A stretch of DNA of 64,000 bases, taken from NCBI GenBank assembly GCA_035530855.1, contig DATKUA010000037.1:30333-94332 (forward strand), given 5' to 3'. Both the position numbers and the translations under genes were made by a program. Of this stretch, positions 10,397-29,473 are shown piece by piece; the first letter of the stretch is position 1; each line of letters starts with the position of its first letter. A model generated the notes under the pieces. The model was not told the origin of the DNA and did no database searches. It saw only the letters and a program-made list of their open reading frames with translations. Origin of the DNA: Acidobacteriota bacterium (GTDB lineage Bacteria > Acidobacteriota > DATKUA01).

Positions 10397-11152
10397 TCAC
10401 AGCCCTGTCGGGAAATCGATAAATCCAGTCTCTACATTGAATTCATTCGCTATCAGATCCTGCAACGCCTTTACCCCAAGGGTCTCGGTAGCGTAATGTC
10501 CGGCAAAATAAAGATTTATCCCGCCTTCCTTCGCCACATGGAATGCGCTGTGGCTGTGCTCTCCGGTGATGAAGGCATCGCAGCGCTCATCAATCGCCTG
10601 AGGCAAGAGATCGGCGCCGCCTCCGGAAACGATGGCCACCTTCTCGACACGATCTTTACCGAAGGGGAGGAAAAGACATTTAGTTCCGATCGCGGAGTCT
10701 ATGCGTTCGCGTAATTCATCCCTCGTCAACTTGTCGGCTGCGTGCGCCAGCCTGCCGATGATCTCGCCATGGTATTCTCCGAACGGGCTCACATCTATCA
10801 GTCCCAAAAGCTCAGCAAGTTGGCTGTTGTTTCCGTATAACTCGTGAGAATCCAACGGCAGGTGGGCGGCATAGAGTCCGATGCCGGCGTCGAAGAGAAC
10901 CTTGAGGCGCTGGTAGTGAGCATCTACGGCAAGCTGGACATCCTTCCAGTAAAGACCGTGATGGACAATCAAGAGCTGCATGCCTTGCCGCGAAGCTTCC
11001 TCGAAGGTCTCGAGGGCGGCGTCGACCGCAAATCCGATCTTTTCGATCCTTTCAGGACACTGCACCTGCAATCCGTTTTGAGAGGCATCGGATATTTCAT
11101 CCAGCCTGAGAAGCTGGTTCAGATAGTCGACGAGCACTCTGCTTTCTACCAT
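10397..11152 (-). CDS. Nif3-family dinuclear metal-centre protein (YqfO/GTP cyclohydrolase 1 type 2 homolog)
   Basis: Nif3-family motifs are present: 'GLQVQCPERIEKIGFAVDAALETFEEASRQGMQLLIVHHGLYW' and 'GEHSHSAFHVAKEGGINLYFAGHYATE'. Confidence 0.8.
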   Translation of the reverse strand: MVESRVLVDYLNQLLRLDEISDASQNGLQVQCPERIEKIGFAVDAALETFEEASRQGMQLLIVHHGLYWKDVQLAVDAHYQRLKVLFDAGIGLYAAHLPLDSHELYGNNSQLAELLGLIDVSPFGEYHGEIIGRLAHAADKLTRDELRERIDSAIGTKCLFLPFGKDRVEKVAIVSGGGADLLPQAIDERCDAFITGEHSHSAFHVAKEGGINLYFAGHYATETLGVKALQDLIANEFNVETGFIDFPTGL

Positions 11153-11218
11153 CTCAACTCCGCTAAATCCTTGTGTGTCAACAGTAAATGTGAGATAATA
11201 GATTACTCATGCCGGTAA

Positions 11219-11956
11219 GTGAGCGTCAAGTGTTTTTCTAAAATGCGAATGACCGACAGGGCCGCGAAAAAAACCTACAGATCGGATTTCCTCTATATCA
11301 GCAACAGATTGTTGTTCGTCGCGGTTATCGCAGTTTTTTTCTTAATTATATCGATCTCATGCGCATCGGGGCGTAAATCAAGCTACCGCTCCGGAGGCGT
11401 CTATCACATTGTCAAGCCGGGCCAGAATCTTTACCGCATAGCGCTCACGTATGGTGTGCCCCTCAATCACGTCGCCAGAATCAATAGAATCAGCGATCCG
11501 AGCCAGATTGAATCGGGGCAGCGGATATTCATCCCCGGCGCAACCAAGACTCTCGAAGTTCCCATTATGGAAGCAGCCGTCCCTGCGTATGCCATGCTCC
11601 CTGCAGCGGGGACAATCACCAGCCTTTTCGGAGACCGTCGCTCCGGACACCACCACACAGGCATCGACATAGCGGCACCTAGAGGCTCTCCCGTGAAAGC
11701 AGTACTCCCGGGCAGGGTGATTTTCAGCGGCGTCATCAACGATTACGGGCGGACCGTCAAGATCAGCCATGAAAACGGCCTGATAACACTCTACGCCCAC
11801 ATTGGAAAAATACATGTTCGCAAAGGGCAGTTGGTGGATAAGGGCCAAACAATAGCCACCGTGGGTAACTCCGGCAGAACAAACGGCTATCACCTTCACT
11901 TCGAGGTCCGTCGCAGGAACGTCTGTATTGACCCGCTCACTCTACTGCGGCGATGA
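11219..11956 (+). CDS. LysM-domain M23 family metallopeptidase; lipoprotein-type signal peptide is possible
   Basis: The LysM domain is 'YHIVKPGQNLYRIALTYGVPLNHVARINRI'. The M23 motifs are 'HHHTGIDIAAPRGSPV' and 'GNSGRTNGYHLHFEV'. The exact start is uncertain. Confidence 0.85.
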   Translation: MSVKCFSKMRMTDRAAKKTYRSDFLYISNRLLFVAVIAVFFLIISISCASGRKSSYRSGGVYHIVKPGQNLYRIALTYGVPLNHVARINRISDPSQIESGQRIFIPGATKTLEVPIMEAAVPAYAMLPAAGTITSLFGDRRSGHHHTGIDIAAPRGSPVKAVLPGRVIFSGVINDYGRTVKISHENGLITLYAHIGKIHVRKGQLVDKGQTIATVGNSGRTNGYHLHFEVRRRNVCIDPLTLLRR

Positions 11957-11963
11957 TTCAGCT

Positions 11964-14600
11964 ATGGAGTTAATCACTTCCCACGGCAACGCCGACTTCG
12001 ATTCCTTTGCGGCCATGCTGGCCGCCGGCAAGCTTTATCCCGAGGCCAAGATGGTATTCTCGGGATCCAAGGAGACCGCGCTAACTGCATTTCTCGATAA
12101 CCCTTACTACGACTTTGACGAGATTCGGCTCAAAGACATAAATCCCGAGGAAGTCAGTCGCCTGATTCTAGTCGACGTCAGCCACAGTTCCAGGCTGGGC
12201 CCGATAGCTTACCTGCCTCATCGCAAGGGCGTGGAGGTAATCATCTACGATCATCACCCTGCGATGGAGAGCGACATAAAGGCCAGGAGGCGCTACGTCC
12301 GCCCCTACGGCGCCATCACCACCCTGTTCGTCCGCATCCTCCGCCGCCGCAAGATCCCCATCTCCAAGATGGAGGCGACGATTATGGCGATGGGGATCTA
12401 CGAGGACACCGGCTTTCTGACCTACCGCACGACTACTTCCGAGGATGTGCGCCAGGCAGCGTATCTCCTGGACAGTGGCGCCGACTTGTCGTTGATCTCC
12501 AACTTCCTCAAGCGCGAGCTGACCACTGAGCAGCTCTCGCTGCTCAACGAGCTGATCTCGAATGCCGACAAGCACTTCGTCAACGGAGTGCCTGTGGTGA
12601 TCTCGCAGGCCGAGCGGGAAAGCTTCATCAACGATGCCGCCGCAGTGATCCAGAAACAGGTCGACCTGCAGCGCTACCTGGTCTACATCGCGGTGATGCG
12701 CATGGGTGACAAGATTCATGTGATCGGCCGCAGCAGGCACCACCGGGTGGACATCGGCAAGGTGGTGACCGAATTGGGCGGCGGAGGCCACGCCACGGCG
12801 GCCTCAGCGGTGATCAGCGGTAAAACGCGGGTGCAGGTGATCGAACTGATACTCGACAAGATGCAAGAGCTGGTGGATCCCACGATTACCGCCGCGGACA
12901 TCATGAATCCGAATCCCCATGTCCTCGAGCCGGACACGCGCATTTCAGCGGCCAGAACCAGGATTGTCGACCTGAATATAAACTCCTTTCCGATAAAAGA
13001 AGGCGACACCGTAATTGGTTTGGTAACAAGGCAACTCCTCGATCGCGCCGCAGCGCACCGTCTCCGCGGAACGGTTCGGGAGGTGATGAACTCCGACCTT
13101 TCTTTGATTCGCCCCGAAGCGAGCGTTGAAGAGGTCGAAGAGCAGCTGATGGAAGGCACGCAGCGTTGCCTGCTTGTCGGCACAGATCCTTCGAACGTAG
13201 AGGGGATAATCACCAGGATGGATCTTTTCCGTCGGATCTACGTCGAGCGCCGCGATGCGAGGGAGCGCGACCATATAGAGCTCGTCAAACCGATGCGGGG
13301 CCATAACATCGACGAGATGCTGCGCAAGCGCCTCGATGCCAGGGTGATAACGGCATTGAAGCTCGCCTCGGTTGTAGCCGAATCACTGGACGAGAAGGTT
13401 TATCTGGTGGGCGGTATTGTCCGCGACCTGATCATGAACTACCCCAACAAGGATGTTGACCTGGTCGTCGAGGACGACGGCATAACCTTCGCTAAAAGCC
13501 TCGCCGAGAAATCGGGGGGGTACACAAGATCGCATGAACGTTTCGGAACCGCCGTAGTCATTTTCCCCGATGATTTCCGCCTTGATGTGGCAACTGCACG
13601 TAGCGAAAGCTACTCGTCACCGGGTGCCCTGCCACAGGTAAGCACCGGAAGCCTTCGAGCCGATCTTTATCGCAGGGATTTCACGATCAACGCACTGGCC
13701 GTCAGTCTTCTTCCCAAAGAATTCGGCAGGCTGATCGACTACTTCGGCGGTCTGCGAGACATACGCAATAAGAAAATCCGTGTGATGCACGGCCTGAGCT
13801 TTATCGACGATCCGACGAGAGCGCTGCGTGCCATCCGCTTCGCCAACCGTTTCGCTTTCGATATTACCGAGGGAACAAAGCAGCTTCTGATCGGCGCAAT
13901 GGAACGCCACATGCTGAAGCGGATTTCGGGGAAACGTCTCCACACCGAGTTCAGGTTAATATTCGAAGATCCGAGGCCCTTGCACGCCGTAGAGCTGTTG
14001 GAATACTACGGCGTCCTCCGCGAGATCCACCAAAAGATCAAACTCGACCGCTTCACAGCGAACTTGATACGGAAAATCGACGCGACACTAAGCTGGTTCC
14101 GTCTTGCTTATATCAGCGGGAACCCGAATCCGGTTCTGATGATCTATATGGCTCTGTTCGAGAAGCTTACTACGGCGGAGAGACGCCGGGTATGCAAGCG
14201 CCTACAGCTCAATCCGCAGATAACTGAAGTGCTTACAAGCTTCAAGCAGCACATGCGAAAGACTCTGGAGTTATTTCAGTCCCAGGATCATCCTCCCCCT
14301 TCCACCATCACCGATAACTTTGAAATCCTCCCGCTTGAAACAGTTCTTTTCATCCATTCATTTGCCAATCGCGAACCGGTCAGGCTCGCCGTCGTCAACT
14401 ATCTCACCAGTTACCATAAAGTCAGTCCCTCACTCCGCGGCGCCGATCTGATAAAGCTGGGGTGCGAGCCGGGTCCAAATTTCAGCGTGATTCTTCGCCG
14501 CTTGCGAAACGCACGCCTAGACGGCGATATCAGCAGTCGTGCCGATGAGATTAGCTTGGTAAAGAAGGAATTCCTCGATTCCGGTCCTCAGGAAAAATGA
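11964..14600 (+). CDS. Multidomain RNA-processing protein. It has an N-terminal DHH/DHHA1 phosphoesterase, a CBS-domain pair, and a C-terminal polyA-polymerase/CCA-adding nucleotidyltransferase head with its RNA-binding domain.
   Basis: The DHH motif is 'ITSHGNADFDSFAAM' and the DHHA1 motif is 'GGGGHATAASAV'. The nucleotidyltransferase signature is 'VYLVGGIVRDLIMNYPNKDVDLVVE...RDFTINALA'. I placed the start at the ATG 8 nt past the M23 peptidase stop. Confidence 0.8.
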   Translation: MELITSHGNADFDSFAAMLAAGKLYPEAKMVFSGSKETALTAFLDNPYYDFDEIRLKDINPEEVSRLILVDVSHSSRLGPIAYLPHRKGVEVIIYDHHPAMESDIKARRRYVRPYGAITTLFVRILRRRKIPISKMEATIMAMGIYEDTGFLTYRTTTSEDVRQAAYLLDSGADLSLISNFLKRELTTEQLSLLNELISNADKHFVNGVPVVISQAERESFINDAAAVIQKQVDLQRYLVYIAVMRMGDKIHVIGRSRHHRVDIGKVVTELGGGGHATAASAVISGKTRVQVIELILDKMQELVDPTITAADIMNPNPHVLEPDTRISAARTRIVDLNINSFPIKEGDTVIGLVTRQLLDRAAAHRLRGTVREVMNSDLSLIRPEASVEEVEEQLMEGTQRCLLVGTDPSNVEGIITRMDLFRRIYVERRDARERDHIELVKPMRGHNIDEMLRKRLDARVITALKLASVVAESLDEKVYLVGGIVRDLIMNYPNKDVDLVVEDDGITFAKSLAEKSGGYTRSHERFGTAVVIFPDDFRLDVATARSESYSSPGALPQVSTGSLRADLYRRDFTINALAVSLLPKEFGRLIDYFGGLRDIRNKKIRVMHGLSFIDDPTRALRAIRFANRFAFDITEGTKQLLIGAMERHMLKRISGKRLHTEFRLIFEDPRPLHAVELLEYYGVLREIHQKIKLDRFTANLIRKIDATLSWFRLAYISGNPNPVLMIYMALFEKLTTAERRRVCKRLQLNPQITEVLTSFKQHMRKTLELFQSQDHPPPSTITDNFEILPLETVLFIHSFANREPVRLAVVNYLTSYHKVSPSLRGADLIKLGCEPGPNFSVILRRLRNARLDGDISSRADEISLVKKEFLDSGPQEK

Positions 14601-14836
14601 CGACAATCCTGAAGGCCTCTATCGACGATTGCGACGACGAGTCAGGGCTTTATAACACTTTCCGATTCTCCGTGTTGCGAGTTCATCAAGATCCCATTAA
14701 GCGATTTGAATATCATCCTTCCCAAGGGGAACTGGCGTCTCAAGTTATAATTCACAGTCGTAAACATCGCCGCGTTTGCACACCACTACTCAACGCTATT
14801 TCGCGGGTAGGAATTGACCGCTGCACCGAGAAATGA
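14597..14836 (+). CDS. Hypothetical small protein (79 aa). It lies in a lower-GC segment and its reality is uncertain.
   Basis: Its ATG overlaps the upstream stop as ATGA. I recognise no motifs. The composition differs from neighbouring genes. Confidence 0.2.
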   Translation: MTTILKASIDDCDDESGLYNTFRFSVLRVHQDPIKRFEYHPSQGELASQVIIHSRKHRRVCTPLLNAISRVGIDRCTEK

Positions 14837-14987
14837 TTCATCAAGTTAGCCCCTGAGGCCTATTAATAAACGGTGATGACGTTCTCATGCCTCAGGCCTG
14901 GATACAAGATTTGCCCATCCTGCAAGTCCAAATTGTGTCATCCTCTTAACATATTCATTAATAACAAGTTAACTTGCTCAACGCCTC

Positions 14988-15016
14988 TTGTATCCTGATG
15001 CCCTGTGTGTTATATT
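14988..15016 (+). promoter_or_regulatory. Candidate sigma70-like promoter (TTGTAT, 17-nt spacer, TATATT) upstream of the DUF465 gene. A GGAGG ribosome-binding site lies at 15051-15055.
   Basis: The hexamers were read directly in the AT-rich intergenic region between 14837 and 15066. Confidence 0.35.
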
Positions 15017-15066
15017 TTCATTAAAGGTGTGTTTATACTCAAAACCCTGAAGGAGGTTCGGTATCA

Positions 15067-15291
15067 ATGACTAGCGCCGAAATCAAGGAAATCTTGTTGG
15101 AAAAGGACGCGAAGTTTAAGAAGCTTTACGAGAAACATCAGGGCTATGAAAGGCGCTTGGATCAACTTAATAAACGACCTTTTCTCTCCGCCGCGGAGGA
15201 TCGGGAAAAGATGGAAATCAAGAAGCAGAAACTGTTCCTCAAGGACCAGATGCAGTTTCACATTGAGAAGTATCGCAAAGACAACTCTTAA
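15067..15291 (+). CDS. DUF465 (YdcH-like) small coiled-coil protein
   Basis: The 74-aa protein 'EIKEILLEKDAKFKKLYEKHQGYERRLDQL...REKMEIKKQKLFLKDQM' matches the DUF465 pattern. Confidence 0.65.
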   Translation: MTSAEIKEILLEKDAKFKKLYEKHQGYERRLDQLNKRPFLSAAEDREKMEIKKQKLFLKDQMQFHIEKYRKDNS

Positions 15292-15331
15292 AGCATCGCT
15301 TTAACATAAGCCTGTAACCTGACGGGAGCTG

Positions 15332-16372
15332 GTGCTCCCGTTTTTGATGGTAAACGTCATGTCCAAAGAGGGTATTATCATTTCGGTGATCGGCTCCACT
15401 TCCCTCAAAGGAAAAGTTCTTCTCGATGAGCTTCCCGCAAGCGGTATCGAGTTAAAGGACATCAAACTTCTCGACGAAGAAAATCTGGTAGGTACTTTAT
15501 TAAAGTATGACGGCGGAGCTGAAATCGCCACTCGTACTACTTCTGAATCTCTGCAGGGAAGCGATCTGATTTTTCTCTGCGGTTCGGTGTCTCACTCTTC
15601 CGAGTGTCTGGAAATCATCGGCGATTCCCGTGTCCCGGTGATCGATCTGAGCGGATGCTCAGCCAGCGATGAAGGGACCGCGATGGCGACGGCGGACTTG
15701 CCGCTCGGCAGGCAACCGGGATGCAAAGTGGCCTTGCCGGAGTCCCTCGCCGTCGGCCTGGCGACCATTCTCAATGCCTGCCTGGGCGCCGGCGAAATCG
15801 AGCTGGCTTCGGCGACCTGTCTGGTCTCCGTTTCGGATATCGGGAAGAAAGGATCTGAATCGCTCCATTCCCAACTTGTGGAGTTGATGAATTTCGGCAA
15901 TGTCCCGCTGGATATTCTCGGCCGCCAACTAATATTTAACATTCACCCCTCCTTTGGAGAACCCGGCGCACAAGGTCGATCGACTTTCGAGGAGAAGATC
16001 GAGTCACAGGTGCGCCACCTTCTGCCGCAGAAGGATCTGCCTTTGGTGCTGAGCATTGCCAGGGTTCCTCTTTTCTTCGGGACGGCAGTATCTTTGTTCA
16101 TCAAGTTTAAGGGAGCTCTTTCAGAAAGCAGTTTGCGAGATGTATTGGGCTCAAACGCGATGATCGAGCTCTCCGATGCTGATTTGGAAGCTAACGAAAT
16201 ACCCAGCCCGCTCGATGCCAGCGACAAGCGCGTTTATCAAGTCGGCCGACTGATGGCCATGGGCGGTAAACCTTCAGCATTCCTCTTGTGGTTCGGTTTC
16301 GATAATATTCTTAGAGGCGCCGTGCTCGAGGCGATCGAACTGGCAAAGGAAATGCTTACCGCGACCAACTAG
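15332..16372 (+). CDS. Aspartate-semialdehyde dehydrogenase (Asd)-like protein, predicted to be catalytically inactive
   Basis: The Asd fold is recognisable: the C-terminal 'DNILRGAVLEAIELAK' matches the Asd C-terminus 'DNLLKGAAWNSVQIAE'. The NAD loop 'GATGAVG' is degenerate here as 'GSTSLKG'. The active-site 'NPNCST' block reads 'LPESLA' with no Cys, and the catalytic His block 'GHSES' reads 'GTAVS'. Confidence 0.6.
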   Translation: MLPFLMVNVMSKEGIIISVIGSTSLKGKVLLDELPASGIELKDIKLLDEENLVGTLLKYDGGAEIATRTTSESLQGSDLIFLCGSVSHSSECLEIIGDSRVPVIDLSGCSASDEGTAMATADLPLGRQPGCKVALPESLAVGLATILNACLGAGEIELASATCLVSVSDIGKKGSESLHSQLVELMNFGNVPLDILGRQLIFNIHPSFGEPGAQGRSTFEEKIESQVRHLLPQKDLPLVLSIARVPLFFGTAVSLFIKFKGALSESSLRDVLGSNAMIELSDADLEANEIPSPLDASDKRVYQVGRLMAMGGKPSAFLLWFGFDNILRGAVLEAIELAKEMLTATN

Positions 16373-17622
16373 TCGATTTCCTCCAGGCCGGATCCGCCAC
16401 GCGGCCGATAAAGAATATATGTGATTGTCTCTTCGCCGATCTTGCGGCTCACGACATCCTCGGAAATCTTCTTCTTCTCCGCAACAGGACTTTTCTTAGG
16501 CTGCCGCATGGTACGCTCTGCCGCTTTTGCTGGAGCCGGGCCGGCCTGATCAACCGCCAGTCTTTCGATCTCACTGGAAATGTCGGAAAGCGATGAAACC
16601 ACACCGCTCTTGTACAGCCTTATCCACGCCGCCAGCAGATCATCCTTGATCCGGTATTCCTTCTCTCTCGACTCTAAAATACCGACTGCAAGCAACCACT
16701 TGATGTAGTCCTTTGTCACGCCGAGACTGCGGTCCAACGCTTCTGCGACCGCTGTCAAGTTGATGCGGCTGGAATGCTGTTGCAGCGATGCCACGGCGGC
16801 AAGAAGTTGCCTGACTATCCCCTGCCCGCGCGATCGCTGGACAAGGTACTCATAGTGATATCTGCAAAGCAGTTCGAGTCTACCGCCGGGAGATAATTCC
16901 TCGACCGCTGCCTGCACCGGCCCCTTGTTTCCACGCGTTTCTAGATTCTTGATCAAGGCGACGATATAAGCCGGTGATCCGCAACATAAACGAGCCACAA
17001 TTCTTAGCTGATCAGCATCCAAGTCAAGATTGAAGCCGTCAGCAATTTCTTCAATAACCGTCTTGACGGCAGCGGGAATTGGAAAATGATCAACCGTTAT
17101 TCCCACCGAAGTCGCCGCCTCGAGGACTCGCGCAGGAAAGGCAGAACTCATCAAGACGTTTGAATCCGGGTAAAGTTCGAAGAAGCGTTTCAGAGTGTCT
17201 CCCTGCCCGGGATAGCTTTTGAGAACGGCTATTTCCGCCACCTCGTCGACGATCACCAGCGGAGCACGTCCGCTCGTTCTCGCCGCCGACTTGATCATCC
17301 CGAATAGCGTTTCAATTGCGTTGACGCTTGAATAATCCGTTCTTAAACCGGATGACTTCACACCGATTTGTTCCAGTGCATCAGCCGTGATATCCCGGCA
17401 TTTTTCGACGAAGAATTCCGGTGAGAAGCAGATTTGATCGAAGGGTAAGAATAAATTCAGGCATTCTTTCCGCTTTGCGATGTAACTGTTCAGAAATCTG
17501 AGCGAGTGTGTCTTTCCCCAACCGGGTCCACCGGACAGGAGGATCTGTGAGGCGCCTCTTCCCGCGGTACATATCTGTTCCCCAATTGCGCTGAGGAACT
17601 CTTTCCTCGATTCCATTGGCAA
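16369..17622 (-). CDS. P-loop NTPase (AAA/archaeal-ATPase-like) with a C-terminal winged-helix-like region and a basic tail
   Basis: Walker A is 'LLSGGPGWGKTHSL' and Walker B is 'LVIVDEVAEI'. The C-terminal 'LTAVAEALDRSLGVTKDYIKWLLAVGILE' looks like a winged HTH. The gene starts 29 nt after the hutU stop on the same strand. Confidence 0.6.
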   Translation of the reverse strand: MPMESRKEFLSAIGEQICTAGRGASQILLSGGPGWGKTHSLRFLNSYIAKRKECLNLFLPFDQICFSPEFFVEKCRDITADALEQIGVKSSGLRTDYSSVNAIETLFGMIKSAARTSGRAPLVIVDEVAEIAVLKSYPGQGDTLKRFFELYPDSNVLMSSAFPARVLEAATSVGITVDHFPIPAAVKTVIEEIADGFNLDLDADQLRIVARLCCGSPAYIVALIKNLETRGNKGPVQAAVEELSPGGRLELLCRYHYEYLVQRSRGQGIVRQLLAAVASLQQHSSRINLTAVAEALDRSLGVTKDYIKWLLAVGILESREKEYRIKDDLLAAWIRLYKSGVVSSLSDISSEIERLAVDQAGPAPAKAAERTMRQPKKSPVAEKKKISEDVVSRKIGEETITYILYRPRGGSGLEEID

Positions 17623-17650
17623 CGAGTTCTCGAGCGAAATGATCCGCCTC

Positions 17651-19336
17651 TCACTCAGGCATCATGGGAATCTTAACGCCGCGCTCCCTGGCAGTTCTTA
17701 TCGCCACTTGGTATCCGGCGTCCACGTGTCTCATCACCCCGGTGCCCGGATCGGTGGTGAGGACCCTCTCCAGTCTTTTGGCTGCTTCAGGAGTGCCGTC
17801 AGCGACAATTACCATGCCTGCATGAATGGACTTACCCATGCCCACGCCGCCGCCGTGATGAACGCTAACCCATGTTGCACCGCCGACAGCATTCAGCAAG
17901 GCATTGAGAATGGGCCAGTCAGCAACGGCATCGCTGCCGTCGCGCATTCCTTCGGTCTCCCTGTAGGGGCTTGCCACCGAACCCGAATCAAGATGGTCAC
18001 GCCCGATTACGATAGGAGCGCTGACCTTACCGGTCGCTACGAGCTCGTTGAATTTCAATCCCATTTTGGCGCGCTCACCGTAGCCAAGCCAGCAGATCCT
18101 GCACGGAAGTCCCTGAAACTTGACCTTCTCTCCGGCGAGCCTTATCCAGCGGCTGAGCGCCTCGTCTTCCGGGAAGGTTTCAAGCACGGCTTTGTCAGTC
18201 TCCGCGATATCCTTGGGGTCTCCACTCAAAGCCGCCCAGCGGAACGGTCCCTTGCCCTCGCAAAACAGCGGTCGGATGTACTCCAGAACAAATCCGGGGA
18301 AATCGAAGGCGTTCTCGACGCCTGCCTTTTTAGCTTGCCCGCGAATGTTGTTGCCATAGTCGAAGGTGATTGATCCCATTTTTTGCAGCTCGAGCATCGA
18401 AGTGACGTGTTCAGCGATTGTCCGCATCGACTCCTCGATGTAGGCGTCCGGGTCGCTCTTTCTCAGCTTTAGGGCTTCGGCATATGACATTCCGTTGGGT
18501 ACGTAGCCGTTGAGTTCATCGTGCGACGACGTCTGGTCGGTCAGGACTTCCGGCGTGATTCCGCGGCGGATCAACTCGCTGAGAAGATCAGCTGCGTTTC
18601 CCAGCCATCCAACGGAAACCGCTTCACCGGCTTCCTGGGCTCGCAGGGCTCGCTCAAGCGCTTTGTCGATGTCGCGCTCAATGTGGTCGAGATAACCGGT
18701 TTCCAGTCTCCGCTGAATCCTGTGCTCGTCAACCTCTGCAATCAACGCTGTTCCCAGGTTCATGGTGATAGACAGGGGCTGGGCTCCCCCCATCCCTCCG
18801 AGACCTCCACTGACCACCAGTTTTCCTCTAAGCGATCCGTCGAATTTACTTCTCGCCAGCTCGGCAAGCGTTTCATAAGTGCCCTGGAGGATTCCCTGAG
18901 TGCCGATGTAGATCCAACTGCCGGCCGTCATCTGGCCGAACATGATCAGGCCTTTCTTGTCGAGTTCTCTGAAGTGCTCCCAATTCGCCCAGTCGGGAAC
19001 CAGCAGCGAGTTAGCAATCAGGACTCTCGGAGCGTCGGGATGAGTGGTGAAGACTCCCACAGGCTTACCGCTCTGGACCAAGAGGGTTTCGTCATTACCA
19101 AGGTCGCGTAAAGATTTAATAATCGCGTCGTAGCATTCCCAATTACGGGCGGCTTTACCGCTGCCCCCGTAAACAATCAACTCGTCCGGATTCTCCCCTA
19201 CTTCGCGGTCGAGATTGTTCATCAGCATTCTCAGCGCCGCTTCCTGGCCCCAACCCTTGCAGCTTATCTCTGTTCCGCGCGGCGCTCGAATTTCGCGTTT
19301 TTCTGACATGGCAGGCCTCTTTCCTAAAGAATCCAA
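17651..19336 (-). CDS. hutU: Urocanate hydratase
   Basis: A 561-aa protein with '[16 protein letters not shown]', '[23 protein letters not shown]' and '[13 protein letters not shown]' (the NAD-binding GGxGGMGG motif). Confidence 0.92.
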
Positions 19337-19445
19337 TCAAGATTAGCACTCGCAGGAAGGTTAAATCAATCAAACTCAAAGGAGTACACAGCCTACTCGT
19401 GAAGATTCCTTCATCATAATAACGGGGAAATAATCTCAGACGGTT

Positions 19446-21404
19446 CTAGGGATGTACCCTTTTACGGAAAGCATCGATATTGCTTAACCAGCTGTTGAGA
19501 ATCTCAACCTTGGTGAGACTTTCTTTAGATACCTCTGGAGTTTCGGGTGAAGTCAGGAGTTGTTGCAATTCAGCTATCTTGTCTGCAAATTCCTGATTTT
19601 CCGGATCAGCATCGAGCAATTTCCGGTAGATATTCAACGCCTCTCTGTAATGGCCCTGTTGCTCGTAAATCTCCGCAGAAGTTCGGGTTGGCGGAGCTAC
19701 AGACTCTTCATCCTCCGCGGCCTCTTCCACAACTACAACAGCAGGCTCTTCCAGCTCGACTTCATGGGCCGTCGCAAGATCCTCCAATTCCTCTTTACCC
19801 TCTACCCCTTCCAGTACAAAGTCATCGCCCAGCTCAAATTCCAGGTCAGCCTCACTTTCGAGCTCCTCACGGGTTTGCTCTTCGAGGCTTTCCTCCAACG
19901 TACCGACCTGTATACCCTCAGGAGATTGTCCCTCTTTGACGATACAACTTCGATCAAGTTGGAGCTCTTCGGCCGGGAATTCACTCAGCTCTTCTTCGCT
20001 TAGTTGATCCAGCTCGATCACTTCGATACCCGGCGCTTCGTCTAAGAATTCAACTGTAAGGGATTCTTCCGTAATCTCTTCGCTTCCCTCGTCGGCGACA
20101 ACAATCCCTTCCAAATCTCCAACTTCTTCTATTGCTTCTACCTCTACCTCTGCCTCTGCCTCAATCAACTCTCCTTCAGCGGTTGTTATCTCCAGCTCTT
20201 CTCCAGCATCATCACTCACAGGCGGCTTCGGCAGATCTTCTTCAGTTTCCGGAACATCTTGCATCACGATTTCTTCGAGATCCCCCCCGACCTCAATATC
20301 ATCAAGTTCCAGACGAGGTCCCTGATCGTGCTCGTCAACGATGATATCCGGCGTCTCTTCATCGCTTGTGATCCCCTCCTCCACAGTTAAAACTTCCTGC
20401 TCTTCGTCCACTAACTCCTGAACACCCTCCTCACCAATCTCTAATTCAGCCGGTAATGGTATCTCAACACCTTCTATTTCAAGAGACTCCATGCCCTCCT
20501 GCTCTGTCTGCAGGATTCTGTCTTTTTTCTGCTCCTCAAGCAGTTTTTCCGTCTCTATTTCTTCTATCTCCTCAAGTGCCCTAACCTCATCGGCTTCTGC
20601 AATTATGGCTTCCTGATCCGGCGGCTCATCCTCTTCTGTCTTTATATCGAACGTTTTGACCGGTTCCTCTTCCTCCAAGCTGGCTCTTCTTGCCGGCTCC
20701 TCCTCACCGCCGAGAGATAATTCCAATTCTATCTCTTCCTCCCCTTCTTCCCGGTCGAGATCGAGTGAATCATCCTCCTTCTTCGATCCGCTTAAATCGA
20801 TCGGTTGGGGAGTAGGTTCAGTCAAGAAAACAGGTTCCTCCTCCGGCTCCCCTAAATCCGGATCCAGTTCTTCTCCTTCTTCAATCCAATCCAATGTCGA
20901 GCGCTGTAATAATTCCTCTCGTTCTAAATTCAGTTCGCCCTCGCCTGACATATCGACCGATTCAGGCGATGAACTTTCGGGCTGGTCCATTTTCTTTAAC
21001 AACAACTCGACCTCTTGGTCGCCCGGCCGTTGTTCTTTTACTTTCAGGAAGTGCTCTCGTGCACGATCGAAATCGCCGCTCTTCATGTAAAGCTCGCCAA
21101 TATATTTATTTGCCGTCGGATTGTCCGGATTCTTGTCCAACAAATCCTGCAGTGTGCTTCTGGCTTCGTCGTAATTCTTGATTTCAATCAGGCATCGGGC
21201 CAAAGTTATCAGCGCCGGTGGGTAGTCAGTGTGGTGTTTCAGACCTTCCTTGCAGATATAAATCGCTTCGTCGTACATCCTGCTCTTACGATATTCTTCT
21301 GCAAGTGGTAGGAATTTCCGCGAAGTCGGGTCCGCTGCGTACTCGTCTGAGAGAGTTTCCAGGCGTGGTGATAATTCGATTTCAGGTTCGTTCTCTTCCG
21401 CCAT
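19446..21404 (-). CDS. TPR-repeat protein with TPR units at both ends and a ~450-aa polyacidic (E/D/L-rich) low-complexity central region
   Basis: The N-terminal TPRs include 'YDEAIYICKEGLKHHTDYPPALITLARCLIEIKNYDEA'. The C-terminal TPR is 'AEIYEQQGHYREALNIYRKLLDADPEN'. The middle is dominated by E, D, L, I and V. Confidence 0.7.
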   Translation of the reverse strand: MAEENEPEIELSPRLETLSDEYAADPTSRKFLPLAEEYRKSRMYDEAIYICKEGLKHHTDYPPALITLARCLIEIKNYDEARSTLQDLLDKNPDNPTANKYIGELYMKSGDFDRAREHFLKVKEQRPGDQEVELLLKKMDQPESSSPESVDMSGEGELNLEREELLQRSTLDWIEEGEELDPDLGEPEEEPVFLTEPTPQPIDLSGSKKEDDSLDLDREEGEEEIELELSLGGEEEPARRASLEEEEPVKTFDIKTEEDEPPDQEAIIAEADEVRALEEIEEIETEKLLEEQKKDRILQTEQEGMESLEIEGVEIPLPAELEIGEEGVQELVDEEQEVLTVEEGITSDEETPDIIVDEHDQGPRLELDDIEVGGDLEEIVMQDVPETEEDLPKPPVSDDAGEELEITTAEGELIEAEAEVEVEAIEEVGDLEGIVVADEGSEEITEESLTVEFLDEAPGIEVIELDQLSEEELSEFPAEELQLDRSCIVKEGQSPEGIQVGTLEESLEEQTREELESEADLEFELGDDFVLEGVEGKEELEDLATAHEVELEEPAVVVVEEAAEDEESVAPPTRTSAEIYEQQGHYREALNIYRKLLDADPENQEFADKIAELQQLLTSPETPEVSKESLTKVEILNSWLSNIDAFRKRVHP

Positions 21405-21531
21405 CGCCTATCACTCCTTGATTTCTTATTTAAATTTTATATTTCCATTCTTCTGCAGTCAAATATTACTCCTAATTGCTTATAAGGGAGGGTTATTCCC
21501 CTCCCTTCAAAAGCATATGTTAACACTGGCC

Positions 21532-22932
21532 TCAGAAGGTTATCTTCATTACTTCGGTCGAACTGAGGCCGTTGGTATCGGTTACTATCAGTATGATCGT
21601 CAGCTCATCACCTGCAAGTGGCATATCGCCTGCTGAATCTCCGACAGTCAGGGTATTCGTTCTCTTGTCCGTCGAGACATCCTCTGTCACATCCACAGCC
21701 GGATTGCCTGCATTTGGGCTGTAGGTGACGGTCCAGGCATAGGTCAGCTCATCGCCGAAGGGAAGATCCGGATCATAGCTGTTCGCCGCCGAGAGGACGA
21801 ACACATTAACCCGGCCGGTTTCAGCTGTGCCAGAAATGAGGTTGATAACAGCCACAGGCGGTTTGTTAATCTTCACGGCAAGTGTGTCTCTGGTGTTGGC
21901 TGTCCTGGCCGTGAGTGTCGAATCATTCAAAATGTTCTGGACGAATGTTTCAGCCTCTCCATTGCTGTTAGTAATTACCTGATTCTGGGGGAAGTAGGCT
22001 CCTGAATCAGTAGACGAGAAAGTGACCTGGATGTTGGGAACCGGTTGTCCACCCGTTGTTTCCGACTTCACCGTGGCTCTTAACAGAATGGATGCATTGT
22101 TATTGATCAGCACCGGTTCTTTCAGAGTCGCGCCGTTTGTTCCGATGGCCTCCAGCGTGATCAACTTATCTTCTTCATTGGTAATTTCCACCAACTCCTT
22201 GGATTTCAAAGCGCCTGCCGTTGCCGAAATTGTTGCATCTCGTCCGATGTTGCGTATGAAGGTGCTCGCCTTGCCGTCGCCGTCGGTTTTCACTTTCTTA
22301 TTGTCGATCCGCGCGTTGCTGTCATTGCATGTGAACTCAACCCTGACATCGGAAAGCGGCTGGGCGCTCTTCGAAAGCACCGTTGCTTCCGCCTTCACCG
22401 TCAACGGAGCCGTTCCGCTCTCCGGATCAATCTTGAGAACGATGTCGCCGACGTCCTGGTCTTTCCTGACAAATTTGACATTTACGTTCGCTGAAGCCTC
22501 GTTGCCGAAGCGCGCGAGAATCGTAGCAACGACAGGCGTCTCATCGCTCAAGAGATAGAGCGAGGCCTGACCACCCGCTGTGTACACCTCGTAAGTCCTG
22601 GTCGGATTCTGGTCGTCAATCGGATCTATTCCGTTGAGGCTTAAATCGCCTGCATCGGCGGAAAAGCGAACCGGCAGATTATTGGGAGCCTGCTGCCCGC
22701 CCACGGTGCAGCTAGCGATGAGAAGAGTGGAGCTGATGCCGTCGGCAGGGATTTGACCGGGGTAAGCAGTGATGCTGACCGCCTTGGTTCCAGTGGGTGG
22801 TGGCTGGATCTTGGGTTGTGTCGGCGTCGGCGGATCATCAGGTGAGCATCCGCTGATCCCCGCGACCACAAGCATGGCCAGCATCAGAAGCAAGCTGTTC
22901 CTCGCACTGACTCTCATCTTATTTCCTCCCAA
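21532..22932 (-). CDS. Secreted lipoprotein with tandem bacterial Ig-like (Big) domains and a C-terminal PKD-like domain
   Basis: The lipobox is 'LVVAGISGC'. The body is β-rich and repetitive with T/S/N/V. The C-terminal 'NSYDPD...ELTYAWTV...TDTNGLSS' resembles PKD. It sits 63 nt downstream of the preceding lipoprotein gene on the pilQ strand. Confidence 0.6.
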   Translation of the reverse strand: MGGNKMRVSARNSLLLMLAMLVVAGISGCSPDDPPTPTQPKIQPPPTGTKAVSITAYPGQIPADGISSTLLIASCTVGGQQAPNNLPVRFSADAGDLSLNGIDPIDDQNPTRTYEVYTAGGQASLYLLSDETPVVATILARFGNEASANVNVKFVRKDQDVGDIVLKIDPESGTAPLTVKAEATVLSKSAQPLSDVRVEFTCNDSNARIDNKKVKTDGDGKASTFIRNIGRDATISATAGALKSKELVEITNEEDKLITLEAIGTNGATLKEPVLINNNASILLRATVKSETTGGQPVPNIQVTFSSTDSGAYFPQNQVITNSNGEAETFVQNILNDSTLTARTANTRDTLAVKINKPPVAVINLISGTAETGRVNVFVLSAANSYDPDLPFGDELTYAWTVTYSPNAGNPAVDVTEDVSTDKRTNTLTVGDSAGDMPLAGDELTIILIVTDTNGLSSTEVMKITF

Positions 22933-22995
22933 TCGGGAGCCGAGGCCCCCTATGCTCTCTCGGGCTGTTTGCCTCTATCGATCGATATAGCTTCG

Positions 22996-23547
22996 TCAAT
23001 CCGCCCAGTTGGTGAATTCGATTGAAATCTGACCTTTGGCGTACACGCGGTCGCCTTCGATCGTCTTCCCGTCGAATTCCACGATTACGTCGCATTTGAT
23101 GCTGATGTAATTTGTGCTGCGCTCGTAGCCATAGAAGATCAAGTCGCTGATGGGGAACTGACCCTTCATCGTTGCCGGTACGATCGCAAATCCTTCGATC
23201 GTCAGCACGCCCTGAGCAGGAACCTTGTACGATACCGCCGAGCGAAACGTCTGGGGCTTGTCGGACCCGCCGTCTATCCTGTTGAAGCTTACCGTGATCG
23301 ATTCGATGATCACGTCCGCCCATGTAAGGCTACTCAGGCCGCCCGGATTCTTGAGATCGCTGTTAAGCTCGATATCAATGGCGTCGCCTGGAATCGTACC
23401 GTTGGAGCTCATGGTGTCCCCAAACGGTTCTGATGCGGGATTGATCGAGGCCACCGTGAGGATTACCTGCCCCTTCTCTTCGCCGGAGCACGACACAAAG
23501 AGAGCTGCGGCTGCAAATATTGTCAGCAGTAATACCTTCCTCGTCAT
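22996..23547 (-). CDS. Small lipoprotein of unknown function (183 aa) immediately downstream of pilQ
   Basis: The signal and lipobox are 'LLLTIFAAAALFVSCSGE'. It starts 11 nt after the pilQ stop. I recognise no family. Confidence 0.5.
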   Translation of the reverse strand: MTRKVLLLTIFAAAALFVSCSGEEKGQVILTVASINPASEPFGDTMSSNGTIPGDAIDIELNSDLKNPGGLSSLTWADVIIESITVSFNRIDGGSDKPQTFRSAVSYKVPAQGVLTIEGFAIVPATMKGQFPISDLIFYGYERSTNYISIKCDVIVEFDGKTIEGDRVYAKGQISIEFTNWAD

Positions 23548-23558
23548 TGTAAAAGCCC

Positions 23559-26500
23559 CTAATTAATGATTTTCGGTGAGATGAAGATCAACAACTCGGT
23601 GTTCTGAATTCTTTCAAGCCGGTTTCGGAAGAGCCTGCCGATGAGCGGCAACTTACTGAGAAACGGCGTCCTCTCGTAGGTGAGGTTGTTGGAGATCTCC
23701 AGAACGCCTCCGATTACCGCTACGCCGCCGTCCTTGACCAGCACGGTGCTGGTGGCGGCGCGCTTCTGAATGGTGAAACCTGCTGCGGTGGCGATACCGA
23801 GCGAGCTCTTGTCGACTACCAGGTCGAGGATCACCGTGGAATCGGAGGTGATGTGCGGCGTGACTTCAAGCTTCAATGTCGCCTCACGCCACCTGATACC
23901 GACGGTGTTGTTCTGAACCACCTGGAATGGGACCTCGACACCGCTCTTGATCTCTGCCCGGGCGTTGTTTTGTGCGCTGATCCTCGGCCGGCTCAACACC
24001 CTAACCTTCTTCTCGCTCTCGGCTGCCGTAAGGATTACGTCGAGTATGAACGATCCGCTGATATTGGCGAACGATCCGACAATGGAACTGCTTACGGAGT
24101 TGGCAGGCAGGTTAACAGCGAACGGGACCAGACCCGCCCCCGACAAGTTAGCGCCGGCACCCGCAATCGTCACCTGGTTCGGAAACACGAGGCCCGTCGA
24201 AGAGCCGTATTCCGACGTCGCGGAGCCGCGGAAGCCGTATTGGAGGCCGAACTCGTTGATAAAGTCCCTGGTAGTCTCGACGATCCTGGCCTCTACGATA
24301 ACCTGCTTAGTCGGTATATCTAGCGCATCGATCAGCCTTAGATGTTCTTCAACCTTGGACGGGATGTCGGCAATGACAAGAGTGTTGGTTCGTTGATCGA
24401 CAACTACTTCGCCCTTGCTGCTCAGGTTACGCCGGATCAGATTTGCCAGAGCATCAGCTTTGGCATAGTTGATCGGCTTGGCTATATGGCGCAACGGCAC
24501 AGCCAGAGCCCTCTGTTCGATCAGATTGCGCCTCTCTTCCGCTTCAGTAGCTAACCTTGAGCGGCTGGCGATCCTGATAACATTACCCTCCTCGACCTTG
24601 CCGAGACCGTAGTAGTCGAGGATGATATCGAGCGCCTGATCCCATGGTAGATCGCGAAGGCTGATAGTGACGCTGACTGGCTGCACCGAGGGATCGACGA
24701 CGAAATTCTTGTCCGTCATCTGCCCAAGCAGCAAAACCAGAGCCCTGAGATTGATAGTCTCGAACTCGAGGCTCACGTTTTTTCCGTAGTATTGCCTTTC
24801 CGCGCTGGTGATCTCTTTGATCTGGAAGAAATCGCTGCTACCGGCCGTGCGTTCCTGCGGGCTTGAGATTTCTTTCTGTCTAGGTTCCTTGGACGAAAAT
24901 GTCTTCGGTTTGCTGGCGGCCGGACGTTCAACCTTGCTTGGCTGAAGATTGTCAGGATACTGATTGTTGAAAAGGCTGAGATTTTCGCTTATCGGCTCCT
25001 CCGTGCTTCCAGAGTTGTCAGTTGGAGTCTCAACATGGGTAACGGTCGGTTCATTAATTTCGGAGGGTTCTTCCCGGATAGCTTCTTCAACGGGGGCTGT
25101 GGAATCGTTGACCATCTTTGCTTCTTCGGCCGGAGCTTGCCCGTTGCTCCCCTCTAGGTTCTCTACTTCAGGAATTGTTTCAGTCTCAGCCTCGGTTGTA
25201 ACGCTATTTTCAGGAGATCGCGATTCAGAGAGCTGCTTCTCCTCAGCTACTTCTGCTACCGGCGAGATTTCCTCATCGTCGGCCTGAGTTTCAATCGCAT
25301 CTTCTTCCGGTTCAGCAGTGATCGATTCCTCCTGGGCTTCAATCTCCGGCGCCTGCGCTTCAGCTTCAGTTTCCGGAGTGGGCTCAGTTTCAATGATTTC
25401 TGCTACCGTTTCCATCTCCGTAGCGAGTTCAATGGGCTCTACCTCAATTTCCTCATCCTCCTGCGCCTGCTCATCAACCACGCTCTCGGGGACTTCCGGC
25501 GCAGGATCGTCTTCTCCGGCTACGGCCTTGGCAACGTCCGTGAGTTCTGCTTCAGCTAAATTCGGCTCGACAACCGGTTCTTCAGTTTCACTGACCGCTT
25601 CAGCTAGCTCTTCCTTGGCCTCGACCTGCGGCTCGACTGCGTCGCCGAAGAGCAGCACGAGGTCGTTACCCCTTTCCAGGACTGCCGGCTGCGAACCATC
25701 AATCAGATCGAGCACGACACGGCTGATCGGATATGGATCGACAGCGAACTGCGCCGAGCGCACTGAACTAAAGAATTGCGAGCCGGTTGCGTCACTCTTG
25801 CGCGCAAGCAGGTTGGACGCGCCGTGGAAATCAACTACGAATCGAGGCGGTTTTCCAACCGGCACGACTCGATACAATTCTCTGTCAATCGGACGGTCAA
25901 ACGAGATGATCACAGCGGAATCGTCTGCTTTTTCGCGCACGGCAAGGTTGACCATGTTGTAGTGAACCACGGGATTTAGGCGGTATTTCAGCGCAGCATC
26001 CGTTACAGCGTCATCCACCTCAGCCTGGCTCCCGCCGCCGTTCTTTTCCACGCCACCCGCGTTTTTCGCGATCTCTACCTCTTCAACTTCCGTTTCCGCT
26101 TTATCCAGTTCATTTCCACTCTCAGTATCCACAGGCTCCGAATCGGCCTCCATCGGATCATTCTCTGCTACTTGTTCAATACCTCGCCCGTCCGCGACAT
26201 CGTAGAATTCAACAAAAAGCCTTCGACCTTTAGGCGTGATCTTGTATTTCTTATCTGGATAATGTCGGATAGAAATAGCCGTGACTTCCTCGGCAGCCGG
26301 CGTCAGCCTGTTGCTTACTTTTATACTGTCGATCGAATTAGATCCGATTGTAATACCGGGAGCGATGGCGCTGATATCAGCCTTTTCCGTCTCGATGACG
26401 AGAGTCGTCTGCCCTTCGGAATATGCTTTGTATGTGAACGGAAGATTGGCCCTGATAACCAATCTGCTGCTGTTGGTGCTCTCCAGATACTGCAGATCAA

Positions 26501-26618
26501 CTATTCGCAGCGCCAGCTCAGAGTCGCTTTCCCCCAAGGGAGCAGCTATAACCGGTGATAATGCCGCCAGTAAAACTGCGACAGTGAGCGTTACCCTGAT
26601 GAACATAGCACCCTCCAT
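23559..26618 (-). CDS. pilQ: Type IV pilus secretin PilQ (AMIN, AMIN, long acidic linker, N0/N1, secretin)
   Basis: The C-terminal secretin domain is 'VLSRPRISAQNNARAEIKSGVEVPF...ERTPFLSKLPLIGRLFRNRLERIQNTELLIFISPKII'. Two AMIN-like β-domains lie near the N-terminus. The total length is 1019 aa. Confidence 0.88.
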   Translation of the reverse strand: MEGAMFIRVTLTVAVLLAALSPVIAAPLGESDSELALRIVDLQYLESTNSSRLVIRANLPFTYKAYSEGQTTLVIETEKADISAIAPGITIGSNSIDSIKVSNRLTPAAEEVTAISIRHYPDKKYKITPKGRRLFVEFYDVADGRGIEQVAENDPMEADSEPVDTESGNELDKAETEVEEVEIAKNAGGVEKNGGGSQAEVDDAVTDAALKYRLNPVVHYNMVNLAVREKADDSAVIISFDRPIDRELYRVVPVGKPPRFVVDFHGASNLLARKSDATGSQFFSSVRSAQFAVDPYPISRVVLDLIDGSQPAVLERGNDLVLLFGDAVEPQVEAKEELAEAVSETEEPVVEPNLAEAELTDVAKAVAGEDDPAPEVPESVVDEQAQEDEEIEVEPIELATEMETVAEIIETEPTPETEAEAQAPEIEAQEESITAEPEEDAIETQADDEEISPVAEVAEEKQLSESRSPENSVTTEAETETIPEVENLEGSNGQAPAEEAKMVNDSTAPVEEAIREEPSEINEPTVTHVETPTDNSGSTEEPISENLSLFNNQYPDNLQPSKVERPAASKPKTFSSKEPRQKEISSPQERTAGSSDFFQIKEITSAERQYYGKNVSLEFETINLRALVLLLGQMTDKNFVVDPSVQPVSVTISLRDLPWDQALDIILDYYGLGKVEEGNVIRIASRSRLATEAEERRNLIEQRALAVPLRHIAKPINYAKADALANLIRRNLSSKGEVVVDQRTNTLVIADIPSKVEEHLRLIDALDIPTKQVIVEARIVETTRDFINEFGLQYGFRGSATSEYGSSTGLVFPNQVTIAGAGANLSGAGLVPFAVNLPANSVSSSIVGSFANISGSFILDVILTAAESEKKVRVLSRPRISAQNNARAEIKSGVEVPFQVVQNNTVGIRWREATLKLEVTPHITSDSTVILDLVVDKSSLGIATAAGFTIQKRAATSTVLVKDGGVAVIGGVLEISNNLTYERTPFLSKLPLIGRLFRNRLERIQNTELLIFISPKIIN

Positions 26619-27175
26619 TATTGGCGCATCCTGACCGTCAACGGTTCGTATTTAACGTCCGGCTGGCCGCTTACCTTAGGTCCCACACGCTCCAGCTTCT
26701 GCAAGAACTTGACGTACTTGCCGTCAAAGCTGATCTCAACTATCCGCCCGTCGTACGCTTCGTCTCCTACCGCAACGATGAACAACTTGTTGTCCGGGGC
26801 ACGAAACATTGAGGTCACTTTCGTGCTTTCCTTCCAGATCGCCATCAGCGTCAGTTGATTGATGTCATACCTGCCGAAACCCGACTGCGGGCGCGGTTTT
26901 TCGCTGATCTCGTAAGTTGCCGCGGTACTCTGCTGCTGACGCTGAGCCCTGATAAAGGGATCCTGGCGTTTCGTGGTGTCGGAGAGAACCTGCAGCACAA
27001 ACCGCTCGATCTGCTTTGCCGATTTCAGCTCCGCAGGTCTGCGGATCTGCTTCTTTGCCGTCTCTTGTGCAGATACCGGCGCGGCCAGCAGCAAGACAAG
27101 GCAAACCGAAAGCGCTGCCGCCAGGAAGGCAAAAATTAAGCTCTTCGAGGCTTCTCCCGTGTGCATACGCATCAT
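26618..27175 (-). CDS. pilP: Type IV pilus assembly lipoprotein/periplasmic protein PilP
   Basis: It has a signal/TM segment, 'DPFIRAQ', and a C-terminal β-domain 'KLFIVAVGDEAYDGRIVEISFDGKYVKFLQKLE'. Its position between pilO and pilQ fits PilP. Confidence 0.65.
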   Translation of the reverse strand: MMRMHTGEASKSLIFAFLAAALSVCLVLLLAAPVSAQETAKKQIRRPAELKSAKQIERFVLQVLSDTTKRQDPFIRAQRQQQSTAATYEISEKPRPQSGFGRYDINQLTLMAIWKESTKVTSMFRAPDNKLFIVAVGDEAYDGRIVEISFDGKYVKFLQKLERVGPKVSGQPDVKYEPLTVRMRQ

Positions 27176-29445: not shown

Positions 29446-29473
29446 ATGCCCTCCGGTTGCTGCCGCCCCCCCT

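Follow-up and report, generated by a model that had tools for sequence, protein, structure and literature searches.

Proteins that have the fold of aspartate-semialdehyde dehydrogenase (ASADH; Asd, EC 1.2.1.11) and lack its catalytic cysteine, E. coli Usg among them, have to our knowledge been known for decades with no function assigned to any, and we know of none for which a non-enzymatic function has been demonstrated. Bona fide Asd enzymes, such as V. cholerae Asd2 (2qz9/2r00), combine a Rossmann N-domain with an alpha/beta dimerisation domain. E. coli Usg (b2319), which we retrieved and translated, is a 337-aa Asd-fold paralogue of unknown function that reads AVPDSLT at the position of the Asd NPNCST motif. 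The P. aeruginosa "USG-1 protein homolog" or probable Asd (2hjs) is a solved structure of related type. A 2025 review judged the USG branch, from sequence, to be non-functional through loss of catalytic residues and records nothing more known of it (PMC12041015), and a paper on Salmonella usg merely repeats the annotation. Here we describe a further protein of this kind, encoded in a 64,000-nucleotide stretch of an Acidobacteriota genome (contig DATKUA010000037.1, positions 30,333 to 94,332; hereafter the window). Its gene (15359..16372, + strand) follows a co-directional gene for a small DUF465 protein (15067..15291, + strand), and a terminator-like hairpin lies between the two. What is new here is the extra-degenerate clade to which the Asd-like protein belongs, its pairing with DUF465 across a conserved hairpin, and the association of its relatives with psd and pssA, the genes for phosphatidylserine decarboxylase and a CDP-alcohol phosphatidyltransferase.

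An Asd fold without the ASADH catalytic residues

The open reading frame (ORF) of the Asd-like gene is open from a GTG at 15332, which gives 346 aa, while an ATG at 15359 gives 337 aa (MSKEG...). Judging from the alignments, the ATG is the likelier start, because all homologues begin there and the GTG sits within the conserved hairpin. The 346-aa ORF reported in a first-pass annotation of this DNA therefore exists, but the protein is more probably 337 aa long, and residues are numbered in that form below. Full-length homology, the Pfam Semialdhyde_dhC domain (41.8 bits against a 26-bit cutoff, E = 1.7e-10), the NCBIfam models for Asd (best score 115.7 bits, E = 3e-33, over residues 15-340 of the 346-aa protein), matches to PDB sequences (down to 5e-19) and an AlphaFold (AF2) model all agree on the Asd fold that the annotation had assigned. 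The model has a mean predicted local distance difference test score (pLDDT) of 76.5 and a predicted template modelling score (pTM) of 0.77, and Foldseek matches it to Asd structures with E = 4e-19, a template modelling score (TM) of 0.65-0.73 and probability 1.00. The protein aligns collinearly with bona fide Asd over its full length and retains the structural motifs FN, (R)VP(V/L)F and DN(I/L)xxG. It has the fold of an Asd but is not an Asd, as all Asd and Usg equivalog cutoffs are missed widely: TIGR01296 (Asd) scores 82.0 bits against 324.2, NF011456 (Asd) 97.3 against 223, NF005957 (E. coli Usg) 90 against 273, and NF004224 (the Pseudomonas type, 2hjs) 115.7 against 284. The Pfam NAD-binding domain also stays under its cutoff (20.6 bits against 26). 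No second asd or argC-family gene was found in the 64-kb window.

The catalytic positions were read from three alignments made independently, with HMMER to PDB sequences, with BLASTP to E. coli Usg, and with MAFFT across 158 sequences. The nucleophile of Asd, Cys135 in NPNCST, corresponds to Ser129 in LPESLA, and the preceding Asn134 to Glu128. The general base His274 in FYGHSxx corresponds to Thr242 in FFGTAVS. The GxxGxxG loop reads G12-S-T-S15-L-K-G18 (GSTSLKG), with Ser15 in place of the middle glycine. The first-pass annotation had picked out these same three motifs as replacements for GxTGxVG, NPNCST and GHSES; each aligns where it had placed it, and both Cys135 and His274 are absent in all three alignments. 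Two losses go beyond those it listed: the phosphate-binding Arg102 is replaced by Ala, and Gln162 by Val156. The losses are fixed across the whole clade to which the window protein belongs, with S, T, A or P at the nucleophile position, T, A, V, S, I, Y or F at the His274 position, and Ser or Thr in place of the middle loop glycine throughout. Since the nucleophile, the general base, the phosphate-binding arginine, Gln162 and the canonical dinucleotide loop are all lost, thioester-based reduction of aspartyl phosphate would be impossible for this protein.

The gene itself is well preserved. In at least eight lineages, spanning 33-73% identity, its ORF is unbroken and complete, and 58 columns are invariant among eight close relatives (43-99% identity). 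Residues invariant in the clade outside the ASADH set include D39, which closes beta-2, Y50, C74, C83, C141, H170, H196, E211 and R297; the outer loop glycines G12 and G18 are conserved as well. Compared with its 73%-identical orthologue (locus L001), the gene has a ratio of non-synonymous to synonymous substitution rates (dN/dS) of 0.13, at a dS of 1.3 that is near saturation. The corresponding ratios are 0.12 for the DUF465 gene and 0.03 for the neighbouring urocanase gene; by dN alone (0.175 against 0.056) the rate of the Asd-like gene is some three to four times that of urocanase. These comparisons indicate that the Asd-like gene is maintained under purifying selection, and the dN/dS of 0.13 together with the invariant columns among relatives excludes a decaying pseudogene. 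The description of the protein as conserved but inactivated is thus borne out, both by this ratio and by the loss of catalytic residues throughout the clade.

E. coli Usg shares several features with the window protein. The two are 28% identical over their full length (BLASTP, E = 2e-27), share a P-(D/E)-S-L motif at the former nucleophile (VPDSLT in Usg, LPESLA in the window protein, against NPNCST in Asd, so that Cys becomes Ser and Asn becomes acidic), have both lost Arg102 (IDSSGLFA and IDLSGCSA, respectively) and have a GRQL(A/I)FN motif in common. Usg differs in retaining the GATGAVG loop and the histidine (VFYGHAQ), neither of which is present in the window protein; it also falls in a separate sub-clade of a neighbour-joining (NJ) tree and sits in a different context, pdxB-usg-truA-dedA in E. 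coli against DUF465-hairpin-Asd-like gene in the window. The best solved match in both sequence (5.3e-19) and fold (Foldseek 4e-19, TM 0.69) is 2hjs, at about 23% identity. Like the window protein, 2hjs lacks the catalytic histidine (VFFGDS, with Asp at that position) and Arg102, whereas it retains GATGSVG, and a Cys stands one residue ahead of the canonical place (SSPCAVA).

Proteins of this kind are numerous and common in metagenomes. An exhaustive profile search with the clade alignment matched 3781 cluster representatives at E <= 1e-3, 148 of them at E <= 1e-30. Among 155 tabulated sequences, comprising the best 150 of that search and earlier matches, 141 lack the Cys; it is kept in 14, and Cys and His together in 13. 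The middle loop glycine is kept in 56 of the 155, and His-Pro occupies the Asn-Cys positions in 44. In part of this wider family the first loop glycine is lost too, to N, D or S. Since so few tabulated sequences keep the Cys, dead-looking Asd paralogues are abundant and of a kind already recognised, and the window protein is a further-degenerate variant of the Usg-like orphan group. The novelty that the first-pass annotation had implied for an inactivated Asd paralogue does not hold up against the Cys-to-Ser change in Usg, the missing His in 2hjs, the published judgement on the USG branch (PMC12041015) and the 141 Cys-less sequences. In public records the relatives appear as "aspartate-semialdehyde dehydrogenase", "hypothetical protein" or "Asd/ArgC dimerization domain-containing protein"; the first of these labels, carried by several of them, is almost certainly wrong.

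Clade membership, DUF465 partner and spacer hairpin

In the NJ tree, which is rough and rests on a biased sample, the window clade (P0001-P0011) and an intermediate group (P0012-P0017) are nested inside a large group of Asd-like proteins marked by the sequence xPHPxA, a G-x-[ST]-[ST]-L-x-G loop and an FH motif, apart from the sub-clade of E. coli Usg. The profile search and the tree both make these xPHPxA proteins the nearest out-group. They share with the window clade the degenerate loop, an LLD...GTLTEY motif and a Q-L-x-F-N motif, and differ in having His-Pro at the Asn134/Cys135 positions, the FH motif and, in many, the canonical His, where the window protein has Glu-Ser and Phe-Phe. The window clade carries motifs of its own (GSTSxKG, LP(E/D)SL, QLIFNIHP and FF/FY-G/S-T). 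Named sources of the xPHPxA group are Acidobacteriota, for example "Acidobacteria bacterium" and Candidatus Acidoferrum, and a 47%-identical relative of the window protein with the same ten-gene synteny comes from an "uncultured Acidobacteriota" metagenome-assembled genome. Narrow scans of genome and of metagenome contigs returned two loci each, all duplicates of known lineages, and the window clade is rare. Its sequences thus appear to form a rare, extra-degenerate clade, newly defined here, nested within the Acidobacteriota-associated xPHPxA group.

The gene directly upstream encodes a 74-aa protein with a predicted helical structure, and a Shine-Dalgarno-like GGAGG (15052..15056, + strand), read from the sequence, stands 10 nt 5' of its start codon. 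The product passes the threshold of Pfam DUF465 (PF04325; 31.4 bits against a cutoff of 25), as expected from the earlier identification of a DUF465/YdcH-like gene ahead of the Asd-like gene, and its closest solved structure is H. pylori HP1242 (1zhc, E = 0.005). It resembles other members of this family, which includes E. coli YdcH, in being a small helical protein; DUF465 proteins are described as small, helical and of unknown function (PMC11836899), and our literature search found nothing about what they do. The DUF465 protein of the window aligns without gaps to orthologues from nine other loci, psd-containing loci included, and a hidden Markov model (HMM) built from those orthologues matches at 1e-30 to 1e-37. 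The ribosome-binding site of the DUF465 gene is strong, whereas the ATG of the Asd-like gene at 15359 has no comparably strong match upstream.

Context statistics here and below rest on eight window-type and four PHP-type lineages, the latter carrying xPHPxA proteins. DUF465 lies directly upstream of the Asd-like gene in all eight distinct window-type lineages, down to 33% identity, with a constant spacer of 63-90 nt, so that the pairing first noticed at a single locus recurs throughout the clade. We found no earlier report in the searchable literature linking DUF465 to an Asd-like gene or to psd or pssA. The pair belongs to a wider conserved block that runs NIF3, LysM-M23, DHH-CBS-PolyA_pol, DUF465, Asd-like gene, an ATPase gene in some loci, urocanase, an acidic TPR protein, Big_1 and pilQPONM.

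The spacer contains a terminator-like hairpin (15321..15345, + strand) of the form (C)GGGAGC-loop-GCTCCC(G)-TTTTT, which ends about 14 nt before the ATG. It has a fold energy of -16.9 kcal/mol (z = -4.2). In all eight distinct orthologous spacers the stem sequence is invariant, the loop varies and the T-run is present. The core hairpin pattern is found a single time in the window, with 0.04 occurrences expected, and in the five related loci that match the exact pattern it is restricted to the spacer between the DUF465 and Asd-like genes. The psd-type loci lack the exact motif; in one of them (L013) a different hairpin with a T-run follows DUF465, and in another (L011) DUF465 overlaps psd. No Rfam family corresponds to the hairpin, and a generic scan for promoters and terminators returned nothing significant and did not list it. 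The sole Rfam hit, to Actino-pnp RNA farther upstream at 14567-14633 (+), falls short of its gathering score (20.6 bits, where 47.7 is required; E = 0.35) and is most likely due to chance.

With only about 14 nt between hairpin and start codon, expression of the Asd-like gene must depend on read-through or on a promoter located within DUF465. The hairpin may act as a partial terminator or attenuator that keeps the Asd-like protein lower than, or regulated relative to, the DUF465 protein with its strong ribosome-binding site. It may also be recognised by a protein, on RNA or as a DNA palindrome, a possibility raised by the conservation of sequence, rather than of structure alone, in the hairpin.

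The psd-pssA operons of relatives and the surrounding genes

The xPHPxA relatives differ from the window clade in gene order, with psd and pssA sitting between DUF465 and the Asd-like gene. All four PHP-type lineages have psd and pssA directly ahead of the Asd-like gene; at locus L015 the upstream ORF, which is truncated, is psd (5.5e-49). The coding regions of pssA and the Asd-like gene overlap by 4-17 nt in three of these lineages and are 9 nt apart in the fourth (L016). Where the region ahead of psd is visible, two of three PHP-type loci (L011 and L013) have an orthologous DUF465 there, of the same length as that of the window and aligning without gaps. Since L013 also keeps urocanase downstream, as in the window, the two arrangements appear to descend from one orthologous locus. 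Searches by tblastn and HMMs found neither psd nor pssA in the 64-kb window, and neither gene is present in the flanks of any of the eight window-type loci. The simplest history would be a single locus DUF465-psd-pssA-Asd-like gene from which psd and pssA were later removed in the lineage of the window; the alternative is their insertion in the other lineages. We found no literature on an operon of psd, pssA and an Asd-like gene.

The PHP-type operons have varied neighbours. In L016 (7023-8707) the psd-pssA-Asd-like operon runs on into lptE-holA, and in L011 (6984-11481) it adjoins pnp-rpsO-truB-(DHH)-rbfA. The truB gene of L011, for a pseudouridine synthase, is a loose echo of the usg-truA arrangement of E. 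coli and possibly coincidental.

Immediately upstream of the promoter region of DUF465 in the window, and syntenic in all window-type loci, a gene at 11928-14600 (+) encodes an 890-aa fusion of DHH, DHHA1, two CBS domains, a PolyA_pol head and an RNA-binding domain, that is, an enzyme of the CCA-adding/poly(A) polymerase family joined to a DHH phosphoesterase. A 79-aa ORF at 14597-14836 (+) overlaps its stop codon and has no family match; at its position no gene is called in L001 or L002, and L009 has a GNAT acetyltransferase. This ORF is probably not a gene, which would leave about 460 nt of non-coding DNA upstream of DUF465.

On the other side, a gene for a 417-aa P-loop ATPase (16369-17622, -) runs convergently towards the Asd-like gene, with a 4-nt overlap at the stop codon of the latter. 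The ATPase has weak matches to AAA_22/AAA_16, and its L010 orthologue matches ATPase_2/NACHT; it is present in the window, L001, L010 and L017, probably in L008 and L009, and absent in L002 and L018. Beyond it lies a hutU-like urocanase gene (17651-19336, -), 92% identical to its L001 orthologue and a neighbour in window-type loci and L013; no other hut gene occurs among the immediate neighbours of the pair (10397-29523). A 652-aa protein (19446-21404, -) whose two ends carry TPRs and whose E/D-rich centre is extremely acidic recalls FimV-type organisers. The pilQ/P/O/M genes of a type IV pilus assembly cluster occupy 23559-29523 (-). They include pilM (28381-29523, -), a 204-aa ORF in the pilN position (27767-28381) with no Pfam match, and pilQ (23559-26618, -), which encodes a 1019-aa secretin. 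After the cluster come a 183-aa ORF and the genes for the Big_1 and acidic TPR proteins.

A proposed non-catalytic role and its alternatives

We regard as about evenly poised the reading in which the Asd-like gene encodes a functional, non-ASADH member of the Cys-less Usg-like radiation that acts as a non-catalytic partner ancestrally tied to phosphatidylethanolamine (PE) synthesis. A non-catalytic role would be the most economical reading of the sequence data, and is favoured because the ASADH apparatus is lost, the gene is under purifying selection and the pairing with DUF465 holds in all eight lineages. The Asd-like protein would be a soluble, probably dimeric accessory or regulatory partner, and DUF465 its small adaptor or partner. 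The ancestral partner step would be phosphatidylserine (PS) synthase/decarboxylase of PE synthesis or, more broadly, envelope lipid homeostasis; psd and pssA would then have left the locus in the lineage of the window while the DUF465-Asd-like pair stayed together. Expression data hint, weakly and circumstantially, that DUF465 genes react when phospholipids or the membrane are perturbed: the DUF465 gene SMc03999 is raised in phosphatidylcholine-deficient S. meliloti (PMC8343143), and ydcH is raised in E. coli expressing mcr-1 (bioRxiv 10.1101/434548). In its most specific form, which we put forward only tentatively, the Asd-like and DUF465 proteins would constitute an unrecognised accessory or regulatory module of PS/PE synthesis, soluble partners of PssA and Psd that arose in Acidobacteriota-related bacteria and persist as a unit of two genes, with a conserved attenuator hairpin of their own, since psd and pssA moved away. 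The first-pass annotation had suggested a regulatory or scaffolding role without sight of the psd-pssA context; its premise of an inactive and conserved protein stands, while the role itself is still a proposal.

Several observations weigh against this reading. Both psd and pssA are absent at all eight window-type loci, so the lipid link is one of descent and not of present context; only four PHP-type contexts were examined, and the NJ tree that places the clade is rough and its sample biased. The hairpin could be a plain terminator, with the two genes as separate transcription units, although about 14 nt to the start codon is too short for a promoter, which weakens that view. Phosphoserine resembles aspartyl phosphate, which gives appeal to the idea that the protein recognises a phosphoserine or PS head group through the substrate-binding residues of Asd. 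We rejected that idea: in the clade the Arg267 equivalent varies (R, L, M, Q, I or Y), and an aromatic or aliphatic residue stands in for the first Glu of EExK. Without conservation of these two positions, serine- or aspartate-like head-group binding would have no residue-level support. The conserved Asp39 and outer loop glycines may, moreover, permit some nucleotide binding and hence some chemistry.

It is unlikely, though worth serious thought, that the protein is still an enzyme with other chemistry, its cleft remodelled for a lipid-related or amino-acid substrate and using, for example, Ser129, Cys74, His170, His196 and Glu211, perhaps with a nucleotide held through Asp39. The clade-wide invariance of D39, Y50, C74, C83, C141, H170, H196 and E211 would fit such a protein, as would the conserved PHP and FH histidines of its relatives, which lie at or next to the old active site and look like re-tooling rather than decay; pathway enzymes typically show coupling as tight as that to pssA (overlap in three of four loci, 9 nt in the fourth). 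The window clade, however, has lost exactly those PHP and FH histidines (LPESLA, FFGT), the dinucleotide loop is degenerate, with even the first glycine gone in part of the wider family, and the putative substrate-binding Arg and Glu are variable. Nor does the psd-pssA pathway have a missing reaction as a candidate, and the 2025 review took the USG branch, from sequence, to be non-functional (PMC12041015).

The same Asp39, typical of NAD ribose recognition, together with G12, G18 and the Rossmann-like N-domain of the model, would suit a dead dehydrogenase that binds NAD(P)(H) and passes redox state on to a partner such as DUF465 or a membrane enzyme. Dinucleotide or redox sensors of NmrA/Rex type provide precedents in other dehydrogenase folds. 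With Ser or Thr in place of the middle glycine throughout the clade, a Pfam NAD-binding domain below threshold (20.6 against 26) and a segment of the N-domain (103-119) modelled at low confidence, we consider such a sensor improbable. A link to the type IV pilus or FimV-like polar machinery seems very improbable to us. The genes for the acidic TPR protein, Big_1 and PilQ/P/O/M accompany the Asd-like gene in conserved synteny in the window, L001, L002, L017 and L018, and in the window the acidic TPR protein and pilMNOPQ lie 3-13 kb downstream of it; the solved protein that matches best is the P. aeruginosa USG-1 homolog, and in Pseudomonas a usg-like gene presumably sits next to fimV. Yet synteny inside one lineage is weak evidence of shared function, the pilus genes lie on the opposite strand with urocanase and, in some loci, an ATPase gene intervening, and the PHP-type loci L011 and L016 lack pilus genes, their neighbours being psd-pssA and pnp/rpsO or lptE/holA. 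We therefore set this idea aside on the strand, the intervening genes and those two loci. That the gene is an evolutionary relic, transiently maintained without a specific function, is scarcely credible: every ASADH catalytic residue is indeed lost and the gene outpaces urocanase in dN by a factor of about three to four (0.175 against 0.056), but its intact ORF in at least eight lineages (33-73% identity), its dN/dS of 0.13 and its many invariant positions, with a conserved partner gene and spacer element alongside, already contradict it.

The locus provides two testable associations for Usg-like proteins, a constant DUF465 partner with a conserved spacer element and relatives that end psd-pssA operons. 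One consequence concerns annotation, in that several such proteins carry the label "aspartate-semialdehyde dehydrogenase" in public records. Should the lipid link prove untrue, the protein would simply join the known orphan paralogues as another degenerate example. If it is true, it would give the orphan Usg-like and DUF465 families a role and add an extra component of PE synthesis in a major soil and sediment phylum; as part of a PS/PE module, the Asd-like protein would offer a first functional handle on the decades-old "dead Asd" proteins of the Usg-like kind.

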